Shown here: positions 14,098-28,499 of the stretch, one piece after another
Position numbering within the stretch: position 1 is the stretch's first letter
Layout of the letters: each line of letters starts with the position of its first letter
Assembly (NCBI GenBank): GCA_052390235.1
Contig: JBQTHB010000003.1
Span: 256,001-320,000, forward strand
From: Deltaproteobacteria bacterium
Lineage (GTDB): Bacteria > Desulfobacterota_D > UBA1144 > Nemesobacterales > CSP1-2
DNA: 64,000 nt
Direction: 5' to 3'
The notes under the pieces: generated by a model
Databases searched by the model: none
What the model was told of the DNA's origin: nothing
Seen by the model: only the letters and a program-made list of their open reading frames with translations
Position numbers and translations under genes: made by a program

Positions 14098-14127
14098 ATC
14101 TTATCAAAAACGATAATTATTTGTCAA
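14098..14127 (-). promoter_or_regulatory. Putative sigma-70 promoter of the hhy operon with an overlapping TTATC-N6-GATAA inverted repeat
   Basis: Minus strand TTGACA-N18-TAAGAT with extended TG; inverted repeat at 14101-14116. Confidence 0.55.
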
Positions 14128-14306
14128 GGGGTTTTTTAAAGTTAATACGAAATATCATACCAATGGAGTTCTCACCAATAATTAAAAATGATTTCAGCGC
14201 CGTGCCCGCACTGCAGTTCATCCCAAAGAGGGTCTGTCATGCTGAGGACATTCACTAGGTTTGTGCTAGAGAAGAAAATTTATTAAGGGGGGGGAAATCA
14301 GCGCTT

Positions 14307-15308
14307 TCAGTCAAGCGGCGTTGAGAGCTTTTTAAAAAATCGGAGTGTCTTAAGTAGCCTCATGCCTACTAGAGTGGGAGAGTATTCGACTCTAGGGGGA
14401 ATCTCGGCGTACATTTGCCGCTCTATCAGACCCCCCTCTTCGAGTTCGTCGAGCCGCTGGGACAGAGTAGAAGGGCTTATTTTAGGGAATTTATCTCTGA
14501 TTTCGCCGAATCTGAGGGTTTTATTGCTCTCAAGGAGGTTCAGTATGAATACGGCGTGTTTTTTCCCTATGATGTGGACTATGTCCCCGTTTGGGGAATC
14601 CCCGTCTTGCTCCATGTAGGGGAATTCCACCGAGGCGTGAGGGAGTTCGTAGTCGTCGAGGCGAAATTCCTTGAGACGGGCGAGCCGCCATTCAATTTCC
14701 GAGACATCGTCGGTAACGGAGGGGTGTATATAATAGGGATTCCCGCAAAAGCAGTCCCCGACTACGGCAAGGGGGTGAGTCCTAAACGCCTGATTGACAA
14801 AGGACGAGGGGAGCTTGCGGCGGTTGTACTGGCATACGATTTTCGCTGGCACGTCGGGGGTGAAAATAGAATTTATCTCGGCTTCCCAGCGCTCCAATTT
14901 TTCCGCGTCAATATCGTCTGAGCCTAGAGTCCAGGTCATCTCAACGGCGAATCGGACACCGCTAAAACCGGCGGCGAGAGAGTCATCTATGAGCCGCTTA
15001 AGCCGCGCCGCCCTTTGCGCATCCCCTACAGCGCCAAGGGCAATCCACTCGTGCTTTGTCCAAATCTCCAGCGCGCCGCGCCGGGTTTCAGCATCGGGGT
15101 CTATGCCATTCATCTTGAGAACTAAGTGAAGCTGGGCGGGAGACAGGTCGTCGGCTATATAGAAAAATCGCTCGCCTTGCTTAAGCCCCTGCTTAATAAA
15201 CGGGATGAGAGCCGGCATCTGCTCAAGCGGGTCTCTGTCGTAAATTAGACAGATATGGTCGCCCTTAGGCTCGGACATTCGATTCTCAAGCGAAGTATGG
15301 ATTTTCAT
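14307..15308 (-). CDS. MEDS sensory domain fused to a HxlR-family winged-helix regulator
   Basis: N-terminal GDHICLIY...EMTW...CQYNRR...THP (MEDS); C-terminal LRFGEI...ISPSTLSQRL.ELE..GLI.R..YAEIPPRVEYS (HxlR). Confidence 0.85.
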   Translation of the reverse strand: MKIHTSLENRMSEPKGDHICLIYDRDPLEQMPALIPFIKQGLKQGERFFYIADDLSPAQLHLVLKMNGIDPDAETRRGALEIWTKHEWIALGAVGDAQRAARLKRLIDDSLAAGFSGVRFAVEMTWTLGSDDIDAEKLERWEAEINSIFTPDVPAKIVCQYNRRKLPSSFVNQAFRTHPLAVVGDCFCGNPYYIHPSVTDDVSEIEWRLARLKEFRLDDYELPHASVEFPYMEQDGDSPNGDIVHIIGKKHAVFILNLLESNKTLRFGEIRDKFPKISPSTLSQRLDELEEGGLIERQMYAEIPPRVEYSPTLVGMRLLKTLRFFKKLSTPLD

Positions 15309-15582
15309 CGCTCATCGCTCTTAGAACTATTATTTAATTCGGGGAAAGTATAATACAAAAAATGAAAATGGGAAGGGCAAGCGCAAAGAATGAAACGGGC
15401 AATAGAAAACCGCAGGGATAAAAACCACTCAGGGCATCATCCCAAAATTACCTCCAGCCATCTCTAAAGGCTATGAGACATCTCATAATGTCATTGGGAG
15501 AGGAGGAACAGAGGGAATCTCAGTAAATATTTCTCTGTGGAGTTTCCACGATACCTCAACATAAACCCTCCTTTGAGATGGC

Positions 15583-17589
15583 TCACAGTTGCAGTCTAAG
15601 AATGCGTTTTATCTCATTTGCAATCCCTCCCGCCGAGATGCCGTAGAGGTTCAGCAGTTCTTCGGGCTTTCCCGACCTCGGCATCCCGCGCACGGCGAGC
15701 TTGAAAACCCGCACACCCTCCGCCCCAACCGCATCCAGCACGGCATCGCCCACGCCTCCCTCGGCGTAGTGGTCCTCAACTGTGAGAATCAAATTATCAG
15801 TCTCCGAAGCCGCCTTGAGGAGCGTATCGCGGTCAACGGGCTTGACCGAGTAGAGGTCTATTACGCGAACCGAGATGTTTTCTCTGCGTAGCTCCTCGTG
15901 AGCCCCAAGCGCTTCGTGAACGGTTACGCCGGCGGCGACGACGGTCAATTTGTCATAATCTCCCGCCCGTAGCGTCTTACACCCGCCTATGGCAAACACC
16001 TCGTCTGCGGGATAAATTACGGGGGTTTTCGGTCTGCTCGCGCGTATATAGACAATTCCCTTATGTGCCGCCGCAAGAGCGGTAACGCGCTCGGCTGACA
16101 CGGCGTCCGATGGATACAGCACAACCGACCCGGCTACGGCGCGCATCATCGCAATATCCTCAAGCCCCATTTGAGATGGGCCATCCTCGCCAATGGAAAC
16201 CCCGACGTGCGAGCCGCAGAGTTTTATATTTGCCCGCGACACCCCAGCCATTCGGATCTGGTCAAAGGCGCGCGTGAGGAAACAGGCAAAGCTCGAGGCA
16301 AAGGGAATTTTCCCGCGCGTCTGAAGCCCCACGGCGACTCCTATCATGTTCTGCTCGGCGATATAGCACTCGATGAAGCGCTCGGGGAACTCAAAGAGGA
16401 ATTTCTCGGAAAAAGTCGAATTCTTAACGTCGGCGTCCAGCGCAACCACGTTTTCGTTAGCGCGCCCTAATTTCGCCAAAGCGACTCCGTAAGCCTCGCG
16501 CGTTGCCGCCATGAACCCCATTTCGTAATCCGGCGGCTCTACAGATACTATTGGCGGCGGATTCGGAGTGAATGAGCGCGGCGCCCTGCCAGATGCTTCG
16601 TGCCAATAGTCCATGAGCCTGTCGTCTATGTCGCCCGCGCCGGGGATTTGCTCAAATTCTCCCTCCGAGGGCGGCGCGATTCGCAGAGTCGGCTCTTCGC
16701 CCTCAATCGCCAGTTCTCCCATCGCCTGCTCCAGCATACTCCCCTTGGGAACGGCTTTTCCGTGCCAGCCGTCCTTATCCTCGAGAAACGACACCCCTCT
16801 GCCCTTAAACGTTTTAGCGAGTATCACCGAGGGACGAGCGGGGCTGTGCTTTGCCCATTCAAAAGCCGAGACAACCTGCTCCATATCGTGTCCGTCAATT
16901 ACGGCGGCGCGCCAGCCGAACGCCTCAAATCGCCTTTTATACGATTCCACATCATGCCCGCAGGCGGTGCGCCCGCTCTGTCCGAGACCGTTTATATCCA
17001 CGAGAGCGGTCAAATTATGTAGCCTATGGTGCGAGGCGAGCGCCGCCGCTTCCCACACGCTCCCCTCCGCCGTCTCGCCGTCGCCCATAAGCACATATAC
17101 GTTATAACCCAGCGCGTCGAGCCTGCCGGCAAGCGCCATGCCGACCCCTATGGAAAGTCCCTGCCCAAGAGAGCCTGTAGCGACTTCCGACCAAGCAAGG
17201 CGTGGCGTGGGGTGTCCCTCCAGTTCGCTGTCAATTCGCCTCAGCGTCATGAGGCGTTCAAAGGGAAACGCCCCCGCCTCAGCCCACGCGGCGTAGAGTA
17301 TCGGGGCGGCGTGTCCCTTTGATAACACCACGCGGTCGTTTCGAGGGTTTAAGGGATTCGCAGTTTCATAGCGCAGGGCGTAGAAAAAGAGCGCCGCAAT
17401 TAAATCGGCAGAGGACATACAAGTTGTGGGATGCCCTGAGCCGGCTTCGCTCGTCATCCTGAGCGAATGTTGCCGCAGCCTTGCCGCCACGCCCTTGAGA
17501 CGCAGGATGAGACCCTGACGGTCGCCCCCATCGAGAGTCGCCGCCGGTTCTCCACCCCCGCCGGATTCGATTAGTATAGGCTGTCTCAT
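15583..17589 (-). CDS. tkt: Transketolase
   Basis: SGHPT, SKGHAAP, TGSLGQG, GDGE TPP motif, GEDGPSQ; start moved to ATG 17589 (GGGAGGGAG SD). Confidence 0.95.
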   Translation of the reverse strand: MRQPILIESGGGGEPAATLDGGDRQGLILRLKGVAARLRQHSLRMTSEAGSGHPTTCMSSADLIAALFFYALRYETANPLNPRNDRVVLSKGHAAPILYAAWAEAGAFPFERLMTLRRIDSELEGHPTPRLAWSEVATGSLGQGLSIGVGMALAGRLDALGYNVYVLMGDGETAEGSVWEAAALASHHRLHNLTALVDINGLGQSGRTACGHDVESYKRRFEAFGWRAAVIDGHDMEQVVSAFEWAKHSPARPSVILAKTFKGRGVSFLEDKDGWHGKAVPKGSMLEQAMGELAIEGEEPTLRIAPPSEGEFEQIPGAGDIDDRLMDYWHEASGRAPRSFTPNPPPIVSVEPPDYEMGFMAATREAYGVALAKLGRANENVVALDADVKNSTFSEKFLFEFPERFIECYIAEQNMIGVAVGLQTRGKIPFASSFACFLTRAFDQIRMAGVSRANIKLCGSHVGVSIGEDGPSQMGLEDIAMMRAVAGSVVLYPSDAVSAERVTALAAAHKGIVYIRASRPKTPVIYPADEVFAIGGCKTLRAGDYDKLTVVAAGVTVHEALGAHEELRRENISVRVIDLYSVKPVDRDTLLKAASETDNLILTVEDHYAEGGVGDAVLDAVGAEGVRVFKLAVRGMPRSGKPEELLNLYGISAGGIANEIKRILRLQL

Positions 17590-18046: not shown

Positions 18047-19054
18047 TTACGCATAGACAGGTTCGTCTTGTGCCGCCTCCTTCTGCGAGCGCACCCGGCT
18101 GAGGGCGGCAACCGGTGTGGCAAACGGCACGGACGTCCCGTTGTAGGCGCGAATCACATGGTAAGTGAGTAGGAGCTGCGCTAGGGCAAGCGGGTGGCTG
18201 TGGCGCGCCTCGACGCCGTCCTGATAAGAGCCAAGCTGCCGACCGGACAACGGACGCGGCTCGGGGAAATGAGCCAAAACGGCCTCTTCGAGTATCGTCG
18301 CACTCTCAGGGGTTACGCTTCCGTCAATCTCAAGAAAATCCGCCGGACGACCGCCGTCGCGCCCAAGCCTAAGGCGCATCCCAGGGGCGCGGGAATCATC
18401 AAACAAGTAACTCAGGTCAGGATGGGGTATCGTGGGGCGTAGCACAAAGCCGACGTTAAGGTCTCCATTCGCCCGCTCGGCGCTGATGCCTTCTGGGGGA
18501 TAGAACTTCATCACAATATCGGACGATTCCCTCTGGGGGCGGATGAAATCCTGCGAGTCGCCCTCGCGCTTGTCGAGTTCCGCCAGCACCTGCTCGACCG
18601 TGTAGCCGCGCTTTGTGGTGTCGCGCTTGACCTTCCATAGCCGCCGCAGGTCTTCAGGGGGGTCTAAATACACTTTTACGTCGTAGAATCGGCGCATCAC
18701 CGGGGAGTGGAAGCCAAGCAGTCCCTCGACGATGACAAACTCCTTGGGCTGAACGTACTCAGGGCGGATAATAGAGCCTGTGGAGTGGTCATAGACGGGT
18801 TTGAGAATCGGTTGCCCGTAGTGCAGTCGCTCCAGATGAAGCTCCAGAATGTCGAGGTAGTTGCAGTCCGGGTGGAGGGCCGTGATGCCGAGTTTCGCCC
18901 GCTCACGCCGGTCATATTTATGGTAGTCGTCGGTGCAGACGTGGGTAACGCGCTCCTCGCCAAGGAGGTTAACCAGCCCCCTCGTAATTGTGGTTTTGCC
19001 GGACGCGCTGTCGCCTACAATGCCAAGTATTATCGGTCGCTGCGGTGTGGTCAT
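18047..19054 (-). CDS. prk: Phosphoribulokinase
   Basis: GDSASGKTT P-loop, DDYHKYDR, KPVYDH, KRDT..RG; lies in the cbb cluster. Confidence 0.93.
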   Translation of the reverse strand: MTTPQRPIILGIVGDSASGKTTITRGLVNLLGEERVTHVCTDDYHKYDRRERAKLGITALHPDCNYLDILELHLERLHYGQPILKPVYDHSTGSIIRPEYVQPKEFVIVEGLLGFHSPVMRRFYDVKVYLDPPEDLRRLWKVKRDTTKRGYTVEQVLAELDKREGDSQDFIRPQRESSDIVMKFYPPEGISAERANGDLNVGFVLRPTIPHPDLSYLFDDSRAPGMRLRLGRDGGRPADFLEIDGSVTPESATILEEAVLAHFPEPRPLSGRQLGSYQDGVEARHSHPLALAQLLLTYHVIRAYNGTSVPFATPVAALSRVRSQKEAAQDEPVYA

Positions 19055-19084: not shown

Positions 19085-20032
19085 TTAATTATCCTCCGCC
19101 GACGCGTCAATTCCCCCTCGAAAAACACGGCTTTGTCGTATGTCGGCGGCGTCAATCCGCGCGAGTTCTCCTTTAGTAATCCGCCCCCCTCGGCTCACGA
19201 GGCGGCTCGCGTGCCGGAGCCTGAAGCGGTCAATTGCGTTGCGCACGCTTCGCCCGTTGGCAAAGTGGGGCTGACTAATCCTCAGCTGCAGATACTCCCG
19301 AAACGCCTCCCTCGCCTCGGCGTCGAAGCAGTACATCTGGCGCGCGAGGAGTAGCTCTCCAATGGCAGTCAGCTCGTCCATCGAGTAATCGGGAAAATCA
19401 ATGTGATGGGCGATGCGGGAGCGAAATCCTGGGTTATATTGAAAAAACGTGTCCATTCTATCTCTGTATCCGGCGAGGATTACAACTAAATCGTCGCGGC
19501 GGTTTTCCATCACCTGAAGGAGCATCTCAATGGCCTCCTGCCCGTAGTCGCGCTCGTTTTCAGGGCGGTACAGATAATACGCCTCGTCAATAAACAACAG
19601 CCCTCCGGCGGCTTTTTTGAGCGCCTCTTTGGTCTTCGGCGCAGTGTGTCCCACGTACTGCCCCACGAGGTCGTCGCGCGTTGCCACAACCAAGCGGTCG
19701 TGGCGCAGATACCCAAGGCTATGGAGAATTTTCGCCATCCTGAAGGCAACCGAGGTCTTTCCCGTGCCGGGGCGCCCTGTGAAGCTCATGTGGAGCGTCG
19801 GCGGGTCGGCGGCAAGCCCCGCCCTCTTGCGCAGGCTATCCACCAAGAGCAGAGCCGCAATCTCCCGAATGCGGGATTTCACAGGGGCAAGCCCGACTAG
19901 CTCGCGGTCTAGGTCGCCGAGAATATCGCCGATATTGGACGCGCGCCTAGTCTCGTCTATATCCAGATACAGCGTCTCGTTTTCTTCGGGCATTTCCAGC
20001 TCCGATACCGATTCCGCGTTTGTGCTTTTCAT
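19085..20032 (-). CDS. cbbX: Red-type RuBisCO activase CbbX
   Basis: ELVGLAPVK.RIREIAALL, HMSFTG.PGTGKT, GQYVGHTAPKT, NERDYGQEAIE. Confidence 0.97.
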   Translation of the reverse strand: MKSTNAESVSELEMPEENETLYLDIDETRRASNIGDILGDLDRELVGLAPVKSRIREIAALLLVDSLRKRAGLAADPPTLHMSFTGRPGTGKTSVAFRMAKILHSLGYLRHDRLVVATRDDLVGQYVGHTAPKTKEALKKAAGGLLFIDEAYYLYRPENERDYGQEAIEMLLQVMENRRDDLVVILAGYRDRMDTFFQYNPGFRSRIAHHIDFPDYSMDELTAIGELLLARQMYCFDAEAREAFREYLQLRISQPHFANGRSVRNAIDRFRLRHASRLVSRGGRITKGELARIDAADIRQSRVFRGGIDASAEDN

Positions 20033-20129: not shown

Positions 20130-20552
20130 TTAATCCCCATAACGCCGCCCCGAGGGATTCACCGCAGCGTAGGAGCGTATCGTGTATCTGATTTGACGGT
20201 CTGCAAACTCCGTCCTCTCAACGTGAAATCCCGGCTCATCCTTCGGGCGGTTTACGATGAAACTCATCGCTGTCGTCTGCCTGCCGAGAGAGCGGTCGTA
20301 GCCGCTTACCTTTATATAGCGATTCGGGAAAGCCTCTCGACACTCGGCGATGGCGCGCATTACGGCGGCGTGGTCATTCATATCGAACATGGGCAGTCCC
20401 CACATCTCCCAGTAGGTGTTGCGCGGGTGAGGGTCGTCTGTATGCTCAATTGAAACTGGCCAGCCGTTTTTGAGGCAGTAGCGCACTTGATAGGCTATCT
20501 CCTCGTCGGAGAAATCGGGCAGATATGAAAATGTGCCTTGAGTGATTCTCAT
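20130..20552 (-). CDS. cbbS: RuBisCO small subunit (red-type)
   Basis: [30 protein letters not shown]-terminal extension; start ATG 20552 with GGAGG SD. Confidence 0.97.
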
Positions 20553-20633
20553 CGAAAGCCTCCTTAATCTATATGATTTACGCCGCAAGATTCCGAGCAG
20601 GCATCGTCTACACGCTCATCTGCGCATCCCGAA

Positions 20634-22109
<1,476 letters not shown>

Positions 22110-22307
22110 CTAGATTGGGAATGCGCATTTATGGCACTGCCCATCCTTTTTTACTAATGGCGAGCAGAGCCAAGCCATCAGACGCCTCATGATAAATTTT
22201 CATCCCCCCTTCTGCCCTTGCAAAATCCCCGGCAGCCGCGCTCCAAGCGGATTCCCCTATCCACAGAGGCGCGGCCTGCGCGGAGAGATGGAGCATAAGG
22301 AGATAAT

Positions 22308-23690
22308 TTATTCATTGTCTAAGCCTCGCGCGAATAAATGCCGGATGGGGGCTTTAATCGCCTCGTCCATCCCATCCTGAAAGTTGATAAAATCCCCGAC
22401 AGCGAGCAGGCTATAGAGGGTGTCGAGGGGGAGTTTTTGCGTCAATGGGGAGTCTAAATCCGGCAGTTTCCCCTTGCGCAACTCCCGCCACTCGGATTCG
22501 GTCGGGGCGTAGAAAAAATCCCCGAACCCTGCCTCGTCGAAACGCTTGAAGAGATTGTCGCCGTCGGTAACCTCGGCGGACTGTCGAAGTTCCGTGAGAA
22601 ACTCCACAAATTCTGGCTCGACTCTGTACAGACGCTCGATTTTCTCCATTGCCAATTTCTCCCCTCCCAATTTTTCCAGGACTCTATCGGAAACCCCAAG
22701 CCTGTCTGAATAATCCGCATCGAGGCGATTTTTTATATCCCCCGGACCCATATCGCTCTGAGCGAAAAATTCCTTCAGCGCCGGGTAAGGCACGGTATAA
22801 ACGTCGCACCCAGCGGTCAGGGGTATCGTCTGCCATCTCCTCACGCTCGCCGCCATATTCAGGGTTTTCACGCCTAGGGTATTTCTAATACGCCTGATGT
22901 GCCTCTGAGTTTTGAGAGTCGTGTGTTCGCCGAGGAGTTCAGAGTCCATGCCCTGATTTAGCCTGCCGAGAAATATATTCGCGCGGTGAACATCAGCCAG
23001 CAGGGCGGCGGCAACGACTTGCCGCGCCGAGAAAGTGGCGGTGAAATTCACTGCAATTCCCTGCCTCTCAAGGCCGCGCGCAATGAGTAGCGAGTGCGGA
23101 TAATCGGGCGTGAAAGCCACTTTGACAAAGCAGTTCGGCACGGCTTGGGCGAGACACCAGCCGGCGCGCCTCGATGCCTCCGGGTCTTTGGCAAGAGCCG
23201 TGTGAAGCTCAAGGCTTATACGCCAAGTCCTATGGGCGGCGTAGGCGTTTAGCGCTTCGAGTCCGAGCCGTCCATTGATGATGCTATAAATCAGCGCCGC
23301 CGCCTCGTCAACGGTTAAATCCGGCTTCTCCTCTAGGAGCGCGCGTGTCCATGAGACGATATTATCCCCATCGCCGCCTCCAAAAAATCTGCCGAGTACT
23401 TTCATGATTAGGGGCTGATTCGTGGTATTGCCGTCTATCTCGGTATAGAGCTTCACGCCGTCGTCATCTTCAGTGTGGACTGCGAGGTCGTGGAGTTCCT
23501 CTCGGTCGGCGGTGTCGGCGTAAATGTGAGCCGTGCCGCAGTCCCTGAGGGCGGAGAGGAGCGGATGGGAGACAAACCCTACGGGCTTTGCGGGCGGCAA
23601 TTTTGCCTGAGCCGCTTTTATCAGCTTCACTAATCGTCTGTCCAATGCCATCGCATGGGTTTTGGGTTTCAGCGTCGCTATCGCACTCAT
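22308..23690 (-). CDS. Divergent, extended transaldolase-family protein
   Basis: ADTAD, GNTTNQP, SLE (acid/base Glu), FVKV (Schiff-base Lys), NFTATFS, IFLGRL, ASVR; start ATG 23690 with GGGAG SD. Confidence 0.8.
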   Translation of the reverse strand: MSAIATLKPKTHAMALDRRLVKLIKAAQAKLPPAKPVGFVSHPLLSALRDCGTAHIYADTADREELHDLAVHTEDDDGVKLYTEIDGNTTNQPLIMKVLGRFFGGGDGDNIVSWTRALLEEKPDLTVDEAAALIYSIINGRLGLEALNAYAAHRTWRISLELHTALAKDPEASRRAGWCLAQAVPNCFVKVAFTPDYPHSLLIARGLERQGIAVNFTATFSARQVVAAALLADVHRANIFLGRLNQGMDSELLGEHTTLKTQRHIRRIRNTLGVKTLNMAASVRRWQTIPLTAGCDVYTVPYPALKEFFAQSDMGPGDIKNRLDADYSDRLGVSDRVLEKLGGEKLAMEKIERLYRVEPEFVEFLTELRQSAEVTDGDNLFKRFDEAGFGDFFYAPTESEWRELRKGKLPDLDSPLTQKLPLDTLYSLLAVGDFINFQDGMDEAIKAPIRHLFARGLDNE

Positions 23691-23733
23691 AAGTCTATCT
23701 CCCGATTCAGATGCCGTTTCAATTATATTAGGG

Positions 23734-23748
23734 GCAACTGCCGTGCCA
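23734..23748 (-). promoter_or_regulatory. Sigma-54 (-24/-12) promoter of the tal-cbbLSX-prk-tkt operon
   Basis: Minus strand TGGCAC-GGCAG-TTGC, exact consensus with GG-N10-GC, about 45 bp upstream of the transaldolase start. Confidence 0.8.
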
Positions 23749-23805
23749 AGCGTCGTGGGCAACGCTAAATTCGCAGTAAATCAAACAATTTCAATAGCTT
23801 GCGAT

Positions 23806-23885
23806 TGAGACAGAATTCTCTGCCAGATGGAGTTGCCGCACCGCTGAGACACCGCTGGCACAGCTAGTGAGACGGCGATGTCTCA
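23806..23885. promoter_or_regulatory. Candidate upstream activator sequences (TGAGAC repeats; TGAGAC-N6-GTCTCA palindrome)
   Basis: TGAGAC at 23806, 23845 and 23868; GTCTCA at 23880; 60-140 bp upstream of the -24 element. Confidence 0.5.
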
Positions 23886-23929
23886 ATTTGACCCCTTCCA
23901 GTGGAGAGGCAAGAGAGGTGAGGAATACT

Positions 23930-24150
23930 GCCTCTGTTGGACTTCATCCTGCGGCTTTCGACAAAGCTTGGAATAAACTACGTCGAAGGGAGGCGAGTGA
24001 AAACAAGGGGCAAGATTCCTCTCTGCGTTCGGAATGACAGAGGGGAGAGGCTTGGATTGGAAATGACCCTTCATACCTAGACTCCGCTCAGGGCGCGGAT
24101 GAAATGGATTCCCGCTCAGGAGACTGCGGGAATGACACCGTGGCAATATC
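23930..24150. repeat. Cluster of REP/dRS3-like palindromic repeats
   Basis: GATTCC...GGAATGAC units and GGATTCCCGCTCAGGAGACTGCGGGAATGAC, which recur at 28.6, 39.8, 43.3 and 60.6 kb. Confidence 0.8.
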
Positions 24151-24172
24151 ACGGAGGGGCAGAGAAATACCG

Positions 24173-24202
24173 TTGACATTTCGGTATTGTCCATGCGACA
24201 AT
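24173..24202 (+). promoter_or_regulatory. Putative sigma-70 promoter with an ATTGTC-N5-GACAAT operator-like palindrome
   Basis: TTGACA (24173)-N18-GACAAT; inverted repeat 24186-24202. Confidence 0.45.
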
Positions 24203-24236
24203 TGAGAATAATCTATATGTCAAGGAGGGAGTCCCC

Positions 24237-25289
24237 ATGTTAAACAACCCATATTACTCGCAGGATGTCCACGGGCCCTTTGAGCTTTACGACATCGGCA
24301 ACCACACGCTCGAAGAAGGCGGCACAATACGGGGCTGCAAGCTCGCCCACGCGACCTTCGGCGCTCTGAACGCCGCAAAAGATAACGCCATCGTCGTTCC
24401 AACGTGGTACTCAGGCACGAGCAAAATCATGGAGCAGGTCTATATCGGAGCGAATCACGCCCTAAACCCAGAGAAGTATTTCATCATCGTCATAAACCAA
24501 ATCGGCAACGGGCTATCGAGTTCGCCGCATAACACGCCTTTTCCGGGCGGCATGGGCAATTTCCCCCATGTTAGAGTCGGCGACGACGTGCGCGCGCAAC
24601 ACAAGCTGGTTACGGAGAAATACGGCATCTCTAGCCTTGCCCTCGTCGTAGGAGGCTCGATGGGCGCTCAGCAGACTTATGAATGGGCAGTGAGATTCCC
24701 CGATATGGTAAAACGCGCCGCCCCGATAGCCGGAACTGCGCAGAACACAGAACACGATTTTCTCTATACGCAGACGCTGATGGACGCAATCACATCAGAC
24801 CCCGGATACAGGAACGGGTTTTATTCATGCAACACCGAGGTTCACGACGGATTAAGACGGCACGCCAAGATGTGGGCAGTGCTGGGTTGGAGCACCGAAT
24901 TTTTCCAGCAGAGGCGATATGCGGATTTAGGCTTCTCCTCGATGGACGATTTTCTCAACAGCTTTATGTTCTACTACTTCGGCTCGATGGATCCGAATAA
25001 TCTGCTGAGAATGGCGTGGAAGTGGCAGAGGGGGGACGTCGCCCGCAACACCGGAGGCGACCTCAAGGCGGCGCTCGGACGCATCAAGGCGAAGGTCTTT
25101 ACGATGCCGATTGACGAGGATATGTTCTTCCCGCCGAGGGACTGCGAAGCGGAGCAGAAGATGATTCCGAACAGCGAATTTCACGTGATAAAGAGCATTG
25201 ACGGGCATTTGGCGCTATTCGGCACTGACCCGAATTATATAGGGCAGGTTGACGCGTGCCTCAATAAACTGCTGGCGACTGCGGTTTAA
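24237..25289 (+). CDS. MekB-like acetyl ester hydrolase (homoserine acetyltransferase-like alpha/beta hydrolase)
   Basis: GGSMG nucleophile, SIDGH; YY...HGPFEL, PTWYSGTSK and MDPNNLL.MAWKWQRGDV match my recollection of Pseudomonas veronii MekB. Confidence 0.8.
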   Translation: MLNNPYYSQDVHGPFELYDIGNHTLEEGGTIRGCKLAHATFGALNAAKDNAIVVPTWYSGTSKIMEQVYIGANHALNPEKYFIIVINQIGNGLSSSPHNTPFPGGMGNFPHVRVGDDVRAQHKLVTEKYGISSLALVVGGSMGAQQTYEWAVRFPDMVKRAAPIAGTAQNTEHDFLYTQTLMDAITSDPGYRNGFYSCNTEVHDGLRRHAKMWAVLGWSTEFFQQRRYADLGFSSMDDFLNSFMFYYFGSMDPNNLLRMAWKWQRGDVARNTGGDLKAALGRIKAKVFTMPIDEDMFFPPRDCEAEQKMIPNSEFHVIKSIDGHLALFGTDPNYIGQVDACLNKLLATAV

Positions 25290-25306
25290 ATTTGGCAATT
25301 ACAAGC

Positions 25307-25344
25307 GGGCGCGGAAGGGCAGGGTCGGCGCTCTTCCGCGCCCG
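25307..25344. terminator. GC-rich hairpin between convergent genes
   Basis: GGGCGCGGAAG...CTTCCGCGCCC stem between the two stop codons. Confidence 0.55.
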
Positions 25345-25385
25345 ATACGCCCAATGGCACATACACGATTTGGGACACCCCACAA

Positions 25386-26732
25386 TTAACTCCCGGACTT
25401 ATAATCGCGGGCTGAGAACTTGTGCTTAGCCATCAAGCGGTGAAACGTGCGGCGCGGCACTTTGGCAATTGCCGCCGCCTTGGTGATATTCCCCCTCGAT
25501 TCAATGAGATAATTTAGAATCTCCTGCCTCTCGTGGCGGTCAATGAAGCGGCCCTTATCCTCCAGAAATCCCCGTCCCGTCTCGCCGGCATCTATCGCCT
25601 GTACGTGGAACGGCAGATGCTCCGGCTCGATGGCGGAGGACACCGTCAGCACAACGGCCCTTTCTAGCACGTTTTCAAGCTCTCTGAGATTTCCGGGCCA
25701 TGAGTAGCCACGGAGATGATACATAGCCGCCGGGGATATTGCCTCGACCATCTTATTGACCTTAGCCCTAGCTTTGTCGAGAAAATGCACGGCGAGCCGG
25801 GGGACGTCCTCGATTCTCTCCCGTAGCGGGGGGAGAGCGATGGTAAAGGTATTGATGCGGTAAAAGAGGTCTTCGCGGAATTTCCCCTCGCGGATGGCGT
25901 ATTCCAAGTCCCGATTGGTGGCGGCGATGACCCTTACTGATATTCTCTTTGTGCGAACCTCGCCCACAGGGCGTATTTCGCCGGTCTGAAGGGTTCTGAG
26001 GAGTTTCGCCTGAGTGTCGGGGGACATATCGCCGATTTCATCGAGGAAAACAGTTCCGCCGTCGGCTTTTTCAAATAGCCCGATTCTATCCGAAGATGCG
26101 CCTGTGAACGCGCCGCGCTTGTAGCCGAAAAGCTCGCTCTCCAGCAGTCCGGCGGATAGGGCCGTGCAGTTGATTGTTACAAGAGGGAAGTTGCTAAGCG
26201 CGCTTCGGCGGTGAATGGCTCTTGCGGCGAGTTCCTTGCCCGTGCCGCTTTCGCCGCGAATCAGCACCGTGGTCGGAGTCGGGGCTACTTTGGCTATAAG
26301 CTCGGCGACCTGCCTCATTTTTGGATTATCGCCGATGACAAATTCCGAATCCGAGTTTTGCTCAAGCTCTCTGAGGGCGAGGCGGTAGCGCTCTTTTAGG
26401 GTTTTCGCCTGAGCCTGAGCCTCGATGAATTCCCAGAAAAGGCGCGCCCCCACGGGACCTATAAGCTCGGTTCGCTCGGATTTGAGGGAGTAAATCTCCC
26501 TGCAGGCTTCGGGGTTTCCAGTGGCATCAATTATGAGGTCGGCGGGTACGGAGGGAATGAGTTGCCTGTAGTCGGTCGTAACGGGAATCCCGAGTCCCTT
26601 TGCGATGACAAAGCCCACTGCCCGCTCGTCAATATCGGCGACCCCGACGACCTTAACCGCCGGGGCTTGGAAAAATAGATTGAGAAGCGCCTGCCCGCCC
26701 CTGCCCGCTCCAACTATTATGACTCGCTTCAT
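25386..26732 (-). CDS. Sigma-54-dependent activator with N-terminal Rossmann-like (BkdR-type) domain and Fis HTH
   Basis: IIVGAGRGG...VADID N-domain; GESGTGKE, GAFTGA, FLDEIG, FREDLFYR, WPGNLREL; C-terminal GNITKAA HTH. Confidence 0.93.
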   Translation of the reverse strand: MKRVIIVGAGRGGQALLNLFFQAPAVKVVGVADIDERAVGFVIAKGLGIPVTTDYRQLIPSVPADLIIDATGNPEACREIYSLKSERTELIGPVGARLFWEFIEAQAQAKTLKERYRLALRELEQNSDSEFVIGDNPKMRQVAELIAKVAPTPTTVLIRGESGTGKELAARAIHRRSALSNFPLVTINCTALSAGLLESELFGYKRGAFTGASSDRIGLFEKADGGTVFLDEIGDMSPDTQAKLLRTLQTGEIRPVGEVRTKRISVRVIAATNRDLEYAIREGKFREDLFYRINTFTIALPPLRERIEDVPRLAVHFLDKARAKVNKMVEAISPAAMYHLRGYSWPGNLRELENVLERAVVLTVSSAIEPEHLPFHVQAIDAGETGRGFLEDKGRFIDRHERQEILNYLIESRGNITKAAAIAKVPRRTFHRLMAKHKFSARDYKSGS

Positions 26733-26797: not shown

Positions 26798-27118
26798 CTA
26801 ATGCCCGCGTTGGGGCCAGGGGGCATCAAGGGGCCACCTGCAACGGTCAACCCCGCCCGACATTGACTCCATCTCGGCGAGGAGGTCGTCATAAAAGGCG
26901 CGCCACGCCGCAACCCCGGCATTCGGCGCCGGGAAATTTCCCGAAAAAAATAGCCACGCCTCTGGCATAGAATCGGTAGAAGAGGGACTAAACGGAAGCG
27001 ATTCGTCCGCCACTGCGGCGCGCCGCCAAGCGTATTCCTCGCCGCGCCGCTCGATATAGACCATCTCGCCGTCCAGATTTGAAGCCATAAGCTCGGAAAA
27101 CAGCTCTTCTCGGCTCAT
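26798..27118 (-). CDS. Hypothetical protein
   Basis: GAGGAGGGGG SD, operonic spacing, protein-like composition. Confidence 0.7.
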   Translation of the reverse strand: MSREELFSELMASNLDGEMVYIERRGEEYAWRRAAVADESLPFSPSSTDSMPEAWLFFSGNFPAPNAGVAAWRAFYDDLLAEMESMSGGVDRCRWPLDAPWPQRGH

Positions 27119-27147: not shown

Positions 27148-28275
27148 TTAGCGTCTGGCTTTGTCCGGCGGCATCCCCCCTCGGTCTAGGGAGAACGTAG
27201 AGCCGCCGAGGCGCCCCGGCTCGAATTCCGAATCCCCCATGCTCTTGCGGTAAAATTCCGAGAGTTGAGGGGAGGCGTCCTGCCCCTCGTTCATCGCAAT
27301 GCAGGGCTTCACAAAAGCGCAGGTGGAGCAGTTCTCCCTAGATGGGCTTGGATAAATCCGAACCTCAGGATTTGCCATCTCCATAGCCTCCATCACGATT
27401 TGCCGCCCGAAATTCTCAATTGCCGCCCGGCTCCTCGGAACGTGCGTGCGGCGAAAGGAATCCCCGCAGAACGTCTGTTTCATCGTGAAATCGGGTTCTC
27501 GTATAGCTTGCAGATAAATACGGCGCGAGGGGCTAGCTTTGGGGGCGGGGTTTGGTTTATTTGGAAAATTCGAGGGATTAGAGGGGATTTGCCCGCCCGA
27601 TGGGGATGAGTCCTTGCGAAGCTCGTTATAGACGACGCCCGCGATTTTCATTCCGGGGAAATAGCTCTCAAGCGCCCAGCAGTGAGAGAGTTCCCGCTCG
27701 TCGAGCAGGAGATTTTCCGCATACTCCCACGCGCCTTCCACGACCCTGTGTTTAATTATCCAGTAGGCGTTATATTCGTCCACCGCGAGCAGATTCACAC
27801 GCCCCCTGTAGCGTATGGGCAGAACGGGAATGGCGCCGGGAACAACCAAATCCTGCCCCGGGCGGGCGGGGTCTGGGATATTCACCTCGAAATCCGGCTC
27901 AACCTGAATCGGCGAGAAATCGTCAACCGAAGCCGCCCACTCGAAATAGCGATTCAGCATCAGCTCGCCGAAGGCTAGTTGCGCCTCATGGTCAGGGGAC
28001 TCCATCCCGCCGCCGCCGAATTTATCCCTCTGATTGCGCATAGATTTATAGAACCCCTCAATTACGAGCGGCAGGACAATTCGGCGATTCCACTCCCACA
28101 TACCGGGGAAATAATATACGGCAAGGGCGTCGCTTATAGCCCGCTGAAAGTCAAGCGCCCGTGATGTTCCGACCGGCTCGAAATTCCCCCGCTCGCCGCT
28201 TTGAAAATTCCAAGCGCGCCGACACCTCTTAAATAGCTCTCTTTCCTGAGTGCGGATGATATAAGCCCACGCCAC
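27148..28275 (-). CDS. PD-(D/E)XK/Cas4-AddB-like fold protein with 4-Cys Fe-S motif and degenerate active site
   Basis: FKRCRRAW...CSTCAFVKPC; GRVNLL and IIKHR replace G.ID and (D/E)xK; likely GTG start at 28275 (AAGGGG SD). Confidence 0.7.
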   Translation of the reverse strand: MAWAYIIRTQERELFKRCRRAWNFQSGERGNFEPVGTSRALDFQRAISDALAVYYFPGMWEWNRRIVLPLVIEGFYKSMRNQRDKFGGGGMESPDHEAQLAFGELMLNRYFEWAASVDDFSPIQVEPDFEVNIPDPARPGQDLVVPGAIPVLPIRYRGRVNLLAVDEYNAYWIIKHRVVEGAWEYAENLLLDERELSHCWALESYFPGMKIAGVVYNELRKDSSPSGGQIPSNPSNFPNKPNPAPKASPSRRIYLQAIREPDFTMKQTFCGDSFRRTHVPRSRAAIENFGRQIVMEAMEMANPEVRIYPSPSRENCSTCAFVKPCIAMNEGQDASPQLSEFYRKSMGDSEFEPGRLGGSTFSLDRGGMPPDKARR

Positions 28276-28499
28276 CGAGGTTTTCCCCTTTTTTGGGTGT
28301 GATGATTCGGCAGGGAGCGGCTCGATTTGCGCCGCCGGGCGGCTACTGTTGGGAGCGCGTGGAGGGGTCGAAATCAGCAGAGGGGGAGATTGAGCGTCCG
28401 GCGCGTCGGATGAAAAAAAGCCGCCATCGCCATAGTTCAATTTCAACCTAAGGGCGCGGGTTTGTCAAGGATTTAAGCGAAAAATTCACGATGCAGAGG

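Follow-up and report, generated by a model that had tools for sequence, protein, structure and literature searches.

Judging from sequence, the Calvin-cycle (cbb) operon described here is very probably controlled by a sigma-54-dependent activator encoded close to it, in place of the LysR-type regulator CbbR. The operon lies in a stretch of 64,000 nucleotides (the whole of the DNA analysed, hereafter the window), which corresponds to positions 256001–320000 of contig C3 in the genome G000 (2.29 Mb, 9 contigs, 99.8% complete). The minus strand of the window carries, in this order, the genes for the activator, a long transaldolase-family protein (tal), the large and small RuBisCO subunits (cbbL, cbbS), RuBisCO activase (cbbX), phosphoribulokinase (prk), transketolase (tkt), a MEDS-HxlR regulator and a [NiFe]-hydrogenase cluster. 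The accessible text of PMC9833100, PMC3404531 and PMC13725076 places form I RuBisCO operons under the control of CbbR, which (together with RegA) is presented as the primary cbb regulator. A first-pass annotation of the window had proposed that sigma-54 control replaces CbbR here, and this proposal is strongly supported by the gene order, by palindromes at a fixed spacing from the promoter and by the lack of any LysR gene found.

We infer that the 448-residue activator likely binds two TGAGAC-N6-GTCTCA-type sites upstream of a predicted -24/-12 promoter, at distances of 137 and 114 bp, and that it would activate this promoter by opening it with ATP, giving a transcript that extends over tal-cbbLSX-prk and taking over the role of CbbR. 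Control is likely exerted by a nucleotide, our best guess being NADH/NAD+, bound in a predicted Rossmann domain of the activator; the most speculative step of this scheme is that high NADH would relieve inhibition of the AAA+ domain through the helix formed by residues 93–126.

The activator and its predicted DNA sites

The activator has an AAA+ domain of the PF00158 family (E 3e-68) with the Walker motifs GESGTGKE and VFLDEI and an intact GAFTGA loop, preceded by an N-terminal Rossmann-type domain (residues 3–83 by domain match) and lacking any PAS or REC match; the GAFTGA loop, the Rossmann-type domain and the lack of PAS and REC agree with the first-pass description. The sequence of its recognition helix, PRRTFHRL, hardly varies among 55 members of the family. 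The genome encodes rpoN and ten strong PF00158 activators, and the helix was not found in the C-termini of the nine others; its near-invariance in the family and its lack in these nine fit a shared, private DNA site.

The exact TGGCAC-N5-TTGC promoter claimed previously is indeed present (23748..23734, minus strand), as are the TGAGAC repeats (at 23806, 23845 and 23868) and the palindrome (table 1). The tal open reading frame (ORF) as listed (484 aa, TTG 23762) is too long; homologues begin at the position of ATG 23687, and the predicted promoter therefore sits 5' of tal. The perfect palindrome is the sole copy of TGAGAC-N6-GTCTCA in the 2.29-Mb genome, and when the 549-bp intergenic region was subjected to 20,000 mononucleotide shuffles, there were 23 occurrences of the strict promoter pattern and none of the palindrome; genome-wide, the strict promoter pattern has 16 matches, 10 of them outside called ORFs. 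When G000 is scored with a site matrix from whose training set the window had been left out, the window palindrome comes first (score 17.2), and the window holds the only pair of a site and a TGG[CA]-type promoter in that genome. The same scan for site-promoter pairs did not find a wider regulon of the activator in G000. The half-site just past the activator stop codon is possibly a remnant of a full site.

Matches to the IHF consensus with at most one mismatch occur between enhancer and promoter in 8 of 38 segments, compared with a mean of 4.0 and a maximum of 9 in shuffled segments; six of the IHF-like matches fall at the same place, and the window has one one-mismatch site.

Table 1. Predicted regulatory elements and genes around the cbb operon, in window coordinates.
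Feature	Coordinates	Strand	Remarks
Sigma-54 enhancer-binding protein (activator)	25386..26732	-	448 aa; Rossmann-type 1–95, long helix 93–126, AAA+ (GAFTGA), Fis-type helix-turn-helix (HTH; PRRTFHRL)
GTCCCA half-site	25371..25376	-	just past activator stop codon; in most homologues a full site spans the stop here
MetX-like alpha/beta hydrolase (PRK07581)	24237..25289	+	between activator and its predicted sites
Predicted enhancer site 1	23868..23885	.	perfect TGAGAC-N6-GTCTCA palindrome; 137 bp above -24 element
Predicted enhancer site 2	23845..23862	.	imperfect, score 12.9; 23 bp from site 1, 114 bp above -24
Lone TGAGAC half-site	23806..23811	+	18-mer below score 7
Predicted sigma-54 -24/-12 promoter, TGGCAC-N5-TTGC	23734..23748	-	+1 predicted ~23722
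Sigma-70-like TTGGCA-16-TATAAT	23722..23749	-	rival promoter; +1 would be ~23715
tal, long transaldolase-family protein	22308..23687	-	459 aa; first gene of predicted transcript; start from homologue starts, profile
cbbL, red-type form I RuBisCO large subunit	20634..22085	-	84% identity to Methylacidiphilum cbbL
cbbS	20130..20588	-	domain match
cbbX, RuBisCO activase	19085..20032	-	TIGR02880 above cut-off
prk, phosphoribulokinase	18047..19054	-	domain match
tkt, transketolase	15583..17586	-	start ATG at 17586 is the analysts' choice

Conservation of gene order and promoter spacing

A genome scan with the tal alignment yielded 39 loci, and a metagenome scan with the first 160 residues of the activator confirmed at least 276 stretches, the best 80 of which were analysed. 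Among these 80 activator loci, cbbL follows downstream in 40 and an ICL/PEP-mutase-family gene in 11, while 25 end within 1.1 kb and four show other arrangements; the activator orthologue thus immediately precedes cbbL, in the same orientation, in 40/80 loci, or in 40 of 55 when loci with no more than 1.1 kb of downstream sequence are set aside. One of the four other loci (L109) contains the CBS and FNR-like genes found ahead of cbbL in L083, L104 and L120. In five tal-anchored loci (L024, L025, L026, L027 and L029) an orthologue likewise precedes tal in the same orientation, and the first four of these also have cbbL after it; the contig of L035 begins inside the HTH codons of an activator gene, before tal.

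Most of 46 cbb-linked loci have sites resembling TGWGAC-N6-GTCYCA near positions -3, +20 and +80 to +114 relative to the activator stop codon (the motif counts exclude L152, whose cbbL is divergent and 4.9 kb distant). Removal of identical loci and of those without a site 75–120 bp past the stop left 40 distinct loci, and when these were anchored on the site alone, a GG-N9-TG core appeared at 134–141 bp in 38 of them, compared with 0–5 of 40 in 15 control windows of equal width. The 137-bp spacing in the window falls inside this range. Locus L029 has an rpe gene between the activator and the sites and possesses the same -136/-114 site pair as the window. The conservation of promoter plus activator in homologous loci envisaged in the first-pass annotation is therefore borne out, both by gene order (40/80) and by promoter spacing (38/40).

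Loci lacking the activator provide a complementary view. No site-promoter pair in the sense direction was found in eight tal loci without the activator nearby (L022, L023, L028, L030, L031, L032, L036 and L038), which contain cbbL and/or prk, or come from metagenome-assembled genomes (MAGs) that do, and which include both Methylacidiphilum loci. A match to rpoN was detected in all 17 genomes tested; the lack of the activator in G061 and G062 is weak evidence, because these are small MAGs.

Some further features of the related loci may be mentioned here. A CBS-pair protein is encoded within the predicted cbb transcript in L024, L035, L083, L104, L109 and L120, five of which also have a gene for an FNR/TrxB-like oxidoreductase, and genes for an FGGY kinase and a histidine phosphatase are often found upstream of the activator. 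L025 and L026 are near-identical yet labelled Acidobacteriota and 'uncultured Clostridia', respectively; the second label may be wrong.

No LysR-type regulator found in the genome

The statement that the window lacks a LysR-type cbbR proved correct and could be extended to the whole genome: the PF00126 profile has 0 matches in G000, tblastn with nine LysR proteins detected none there, and no LysR match was encountered in any related locus retrieved. The single PF03466 match in G000 was considered and rejected as a LysR protein, as it reads as a phosphate-binding-type protein adjoining a permease gene. A TGA-N7-TCA palindrome between tal and cbbL, which resembles a CbbR box, was likewise rejected, being a weak pattern with six similar places in a genome in which no LysR gene was found. 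The 222-bp gap between tal and cbbL (22086–22307) has a GC-rich hairpin-like stretch and an ATGA-N7-TCAT palindrome, with no terminator-like site called. The activator itself is not a CbbR, as the LysR HTH and substrate domains are missing from it.

The sensor domain and its possible ligand

Residues 1–95 of the activator are modelled as a Rossmann fold (predicted local distance difference test by block, 88–96), followed by the long helix 93–126 (from an alignment of four sequences). The motif GAGxGG, D33, G40 and a TG pair show no variation among 41 cbb-linked and 14 further proteins of the family, which suggests that the pocket is in use. Asp at the end of strand 2 is a known fingerprint of Rossmann domains favouring NAD(H) over NADP(H), and D33 accordingly favours NAD(H). 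The dinucleotide-type ligand suggested in the first-pass annotation thus stands as plausible by virtue of the fold and the invariant GAGxGG and D33, whereas fold and motif do not fix which ligand it is. NAD(H) is our leading candidate, with a probability that we put slightly short of even; ATP/ADP/AMP on the one hand and CoA or acyl-CoA on the other each appear rather unlikely, and some other ligand a shade more so.

The wiring could be the same with a sensor reading CoA/acyl-CoA or the adenylate charge, in which case the operon would respond to the carbon or energy status of the cell rather than to redox, and we give this alternative a real, if minority, chance. The closest solved relatives, by sequence and by Foldseek, are acylating acetaldehyde dehydrogenases (enzymes that bind NAD and CoA at one Rossmann site), along with Gfo/Idh/MocA domains; the sensor domain has a match to PF02629 (CoA_binding), and AMP-binding KTN/Kef domains score alike. 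The gene neighbourhoods of relatives point in the same direction, as a sister clade precedes an ICL/PEP-mutase-family gene and a BkdR orthologue precedes an acyl-CoA-forming operon. Against this stand the invariant D33, fitting the NAD ribose fingerprint, the fact that most of the top fold matches are dehydrogenase domains binding NAD(P), and the presence of an FNR/TrxB-like gene within the operon in five loci.

The Rossmann-type domain of the activator also occurs on PAS histidine kinases and on an HD/GGDEF protein (P0125–P0134), and therefore seems to be a mobile sensor module. A profile search recognized it in 666 of 7,999 scored candidates, with names including Ca. Sulfotelmatobacter, Terriglobales, Rokubacteria and Methylomirabilota.

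The adjacent hydrogenase

The [NiFe]-hydrogenase cluster comes after the cbb genes in the same orientation, and its large subunit, presumably of group 1h, has one close solved relative, HofG (5aa5). These observations are compatible with the idea that H2 oxidation by the adjacent enzyme generates an NAD(P)H signal and that the two clusters form one co-regulated unit, which we nevertheless regard as unlikely. The gene for the small subunit, hhyS, is near the activator in only 1 of the 80 loci within the retrieved flanks, which are short in many cases. Among 120 genomes of the phylum the hydrogenase is present in G000 and G001, the latter having neither RuBisCO nor the activator. Neither a sigma-54 core nor a family site occurs upstream of hhyS; instead, a sigma-70-like site occurs at 14127 and a terminator-like hairpin at 14213. 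Moreover, group 1h enzymes are not known to reduce NAD directly. The H2 link put forward in the first-pass annotation is thus not supported as a conserved module: H2 may feed the reductant pool of the cell, but the hydrogenase and cbb clusters do not appear to form a single unit of regulation.

The gene for the MEDS-HxlR fusion regulator (14307–15308, minus strand) separates tkt from the hydrogenase genes. Upstream of it, a perfect palindrome, TATGAGATGTCTCATA (~15460–15490), has half-sites in common with the activator motif, lacks a spacer and is possibly an operator.

Alternative promoters and activators

The -24/-12 site is overlapped by a TTGGCA-16-TATAAT sequence that was not mentioned in the first-pass annotation and that, with 11 of 12 positions matching, is the best sigma-70-like promoter in 14.7 kb. 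The operon might hence be read now mainly from this promoter, the activator being a leftover or serving as a repressor or modulator. The activator of the window is displaced from the operon by an inserted gene, forms a long branch and shows some departures from the family consensus, as would fit such a scenario. We nonetheless consider it improbable. Of the 38 homologous promoters, which retain the -24/-12 core, only 1 matches TATAAT at five or more of six positions, so that what is conserved is a sigma-54-type promoter; TATA-rich DNA also trails other sigma-54 sites in G000; and the GAFTGA and Walker motifs, the recognition helix and both sites (at the family spacing) are all intact. That the sigma-54 promoter is driven by another of the nine remaining activators, such as a two-component regulator, is conceivable given the ten strong PF00158 proteins in G000 and the ability of enhancer-binding proteins to act at a distance, yet very improbable, as the palindrome travels with this family in both cbb and ICL loci, has no second perfect copy in G000, and the family helix is present in this protein only.

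Control of the cbb operon by the neighbouring activator through sigma-54 therefore remains our preferred reading, and several observations have to be weighed against it. Apart from the overlap with the sigma-70-like promoter in the host genome itself, the activator is separated from its sites by 1.5 kb and one other gene, unlike most homologues, and nine other activators with GAFTGA or GSFTGA are encoded in G000. The HTH_8 domain of the activator scores 21.6 bits, just under the Pfam cut-off of 22 (many orthologues carry PF02954). A looser promoter core combined with a site score of 9 adds nine further pairs in G000, all weak and at chance level. The related loci are not independent, as many come from similar metagenomes and include near-identical pairs (L025/L026 and L027/L073); these same loci served to train the site matrix, so that only the window, L035 and the promoter spacing constitute independent tests. 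Four activator-bearing genomes tested carry one to seven LysR genes on other contigs, counted irrespective of CbbR identity. Finally, with regard to the sensor, the fold names no ligand, with dehydrogenases, KTN/RCK domains (NAD- and AMP-bound), formyltransferase and Rex all at Z 9.6–11.8, a range that in a wide structural search also includes Kef domains.

Comparison with known regulatory systems

The system resembles CbbR/RbcR with RegA in that a dedicated activator is encoded beside the operon and a metabolite or redox input is envisaged; NADPH, for instance, is reportedly sensed in the Xanthobacter CbbR system. It differs from CbbR/RbcR in employing an AAA+ sigma-54 activator with sites ~137 bp upstream, and in having no LysR gene in G000 or in the retrieved loci. 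A literature search covering mainly openly accessible articles returned nothing on sigma-54 control of RuBisCO or cbb genes, nor on the sensor domain. The accessible text of PMC2621215 and PMC7895386 makes no link between sigma-54 and cbb.

A regulator of Brevibacillus laterosporus (NZ_CP011075.1) precedes genes for a Glu/Leu/Phe/Val dehydrogenase, lpdA and keto-acid dehydrogenase, and owing to this position before the keto-acid dehydrogenase genes it can be taken as the BkdR orthologue. Its N-terminal domain is homologous to that of the activator (43% identity over 91 aa in tblastn; 34% over 140 aa in BLASTP), it has an AAA+ domain, and a -24/-12 site stands before its operon. In contrast, the Brevibacillus BkdR has 692 aa, whereas the window activator has 448 aa and no PAS match; the HTH is different, the BkdR locus is without a match to the TGAGAC matrix, and BkdR targets branched-chain keto-acid genes while the window activator adjoins cbb genes. 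The first-pass label 'BkdR-like' is thus apt for the shared sensor domain and inapt for size, PAS content, HTH, site and target. The accessible text of PMC4428206 describes BkdR with PAS/PAC domains only.

Rex provides another parallel as a transcription regulator with a Rossmann domain, and weak sequence matches to it were recorded (E 0.19–0.36). In Rex, a repressor of the winged-helix type, the NADH domain is C-terminal, whereas here the Rossmann domain is N-terminal on an AAA+ activator with no N-terminal winged helix. Nor is Rex the best structural match to the sensor domain: at Z 9.7 (root-mean-square deviation 5.0, 108 aligned residues) it ranks below many dehydrogenase domains.

As for the operon itself, Methylacidiphilum has the same gene order (tal-cbbLSX-prk-tkt), with cbbL 84% and tal 57% identical, and differs in that those genomes have no activator orthologue and no site-promoter pair before tal. 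Expression of cbb in Methylacidiphilum is constitutive, with low cbbR, according to the accessible text of PMC3404531.

The ICL-linked sister clade, bearing Rokubacteria and Methylomirabilota names, shares the domain layout, motif and palindrome with the cbb-linked activators, and is set apart as a separate clade (support 1.0) with a site-to-promoter distance of ~70–85 bp and a different target. In its loci (L134, L137, L138 and L141–L149), the activator gene comes after rpsF-ssb-rplI-dnaB and before genes for a small Cys-rich peptide and the ICL/PEP-mutase-family protein.

Origin of the module

The activator together with RuBisCO is present in a single genome (G000) among the 120 of the phylum, a distribution pointing to acquisition by horizontal transfer. 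A midpoint-rooted tree of 70 proteins, with weak deep nodes, places the window activator with L024 (support 0.89), outside the ICL clade; L136 was set among the ICL-linked sequences in the alignment and tree without evidence, its contig ending 156 bp after the gene. No MetX-like gene was found in any of the related loci examined, and the one in the window is therefore likely a later insertion. We thus infer that the module was gained horizontally as a block and subsequently received the MetX-like insertion, which spared the activator and the enhancer.

Other features of the locus and the host genome

The best named PDB matches of CbbL are red-type and cbbX is present; the RuBisCO is tentatively assigned to form IE, whose large subunits group with verrucomicrobial and actinobacterial sequences, on sequence identity rather than on a tree. 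The gap between prk and tkt amounts to ~460 bp, and because of it tkt may have its own promoter. The tal family comprises proteins of 450–460 aa, which far exceed FSA/TalC in length, and 431 relatives were recognized in a set of 8,000 scored candidates; these come from Acidobacteria, Methylacidiphilum, Armatimonadota, KSB1, Nitrospira and Binatia, and adjoin cbbL in several phyla. The long tal could be a cbb-specific regeneration enzyme. Elsewhere G000 encodes two class I fructose-bisphosphatases (FBPases), DeoC/LacD-family aldolases (one of them adjoining an FBPase gene), a tal-pgi fusion, rpe, rpiB and tkt, while searches of this genome for GlpX and for a class II aldolase were negative. A full Calvin cycle is feasible because regeneration enzymes are encoded in a pentose-phosphate cluster on contig C5, and with all these enzymes present elsewhere in the genome a forced transaldolase-only variant of the cycle was not adopted.

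REP-like palindromic repeats of the type GGATTCCCGC...GCGGGAAT occupy positions 24010–24140, upstream of the MetX-like gene, with 38 and 72 pattern matches in the genome. Two minus-strand ORFs upstream of the activator (27148–28446, 432 aa; 26798–27118, 106 aa) have no Pfam or NCBIfam match and do not occur in the related loci.

Biological significance

What is new here is the wiring and the sensor; the parts themselves are of known kinds. More tentatively, and with somewhat less confidence than its negation would deserve, the activator may represent an undescribed, widespread class of sigma-54 activators, in which a stand-alone Rossmann domain would serve as a direct NADH/NAD+ sensor and which would govern the Calvin cycle as its master switch in uncultured bacteria of soil and peat. 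The activator, its enhancer and promoter and the cbb genes would then make up a cross-phylum module that gave autotrophy to the sole RuBisCO-bearing genome of 120 in its phylum, one in which no LysR gene was found.

If the proposed control is true, sigma-54 would provide a second way of regulating the Calvin cycle, one keeping it tightly off until triggered. The system appears to be common in Acidobacteria-type loci from soil and peat, habitats whose dark CO2 fixation is still little understood, and G000, nearly complete, without a LysR gene found and with one site-promoter pair, offers a clean test case. As the sensor domain is also carried by the BkdR orthologue and by histidine kinases, the identity of its ligand would annotate many proteins, and it could yield a nucleotide-responsive switch for engineered CO2 fixation.

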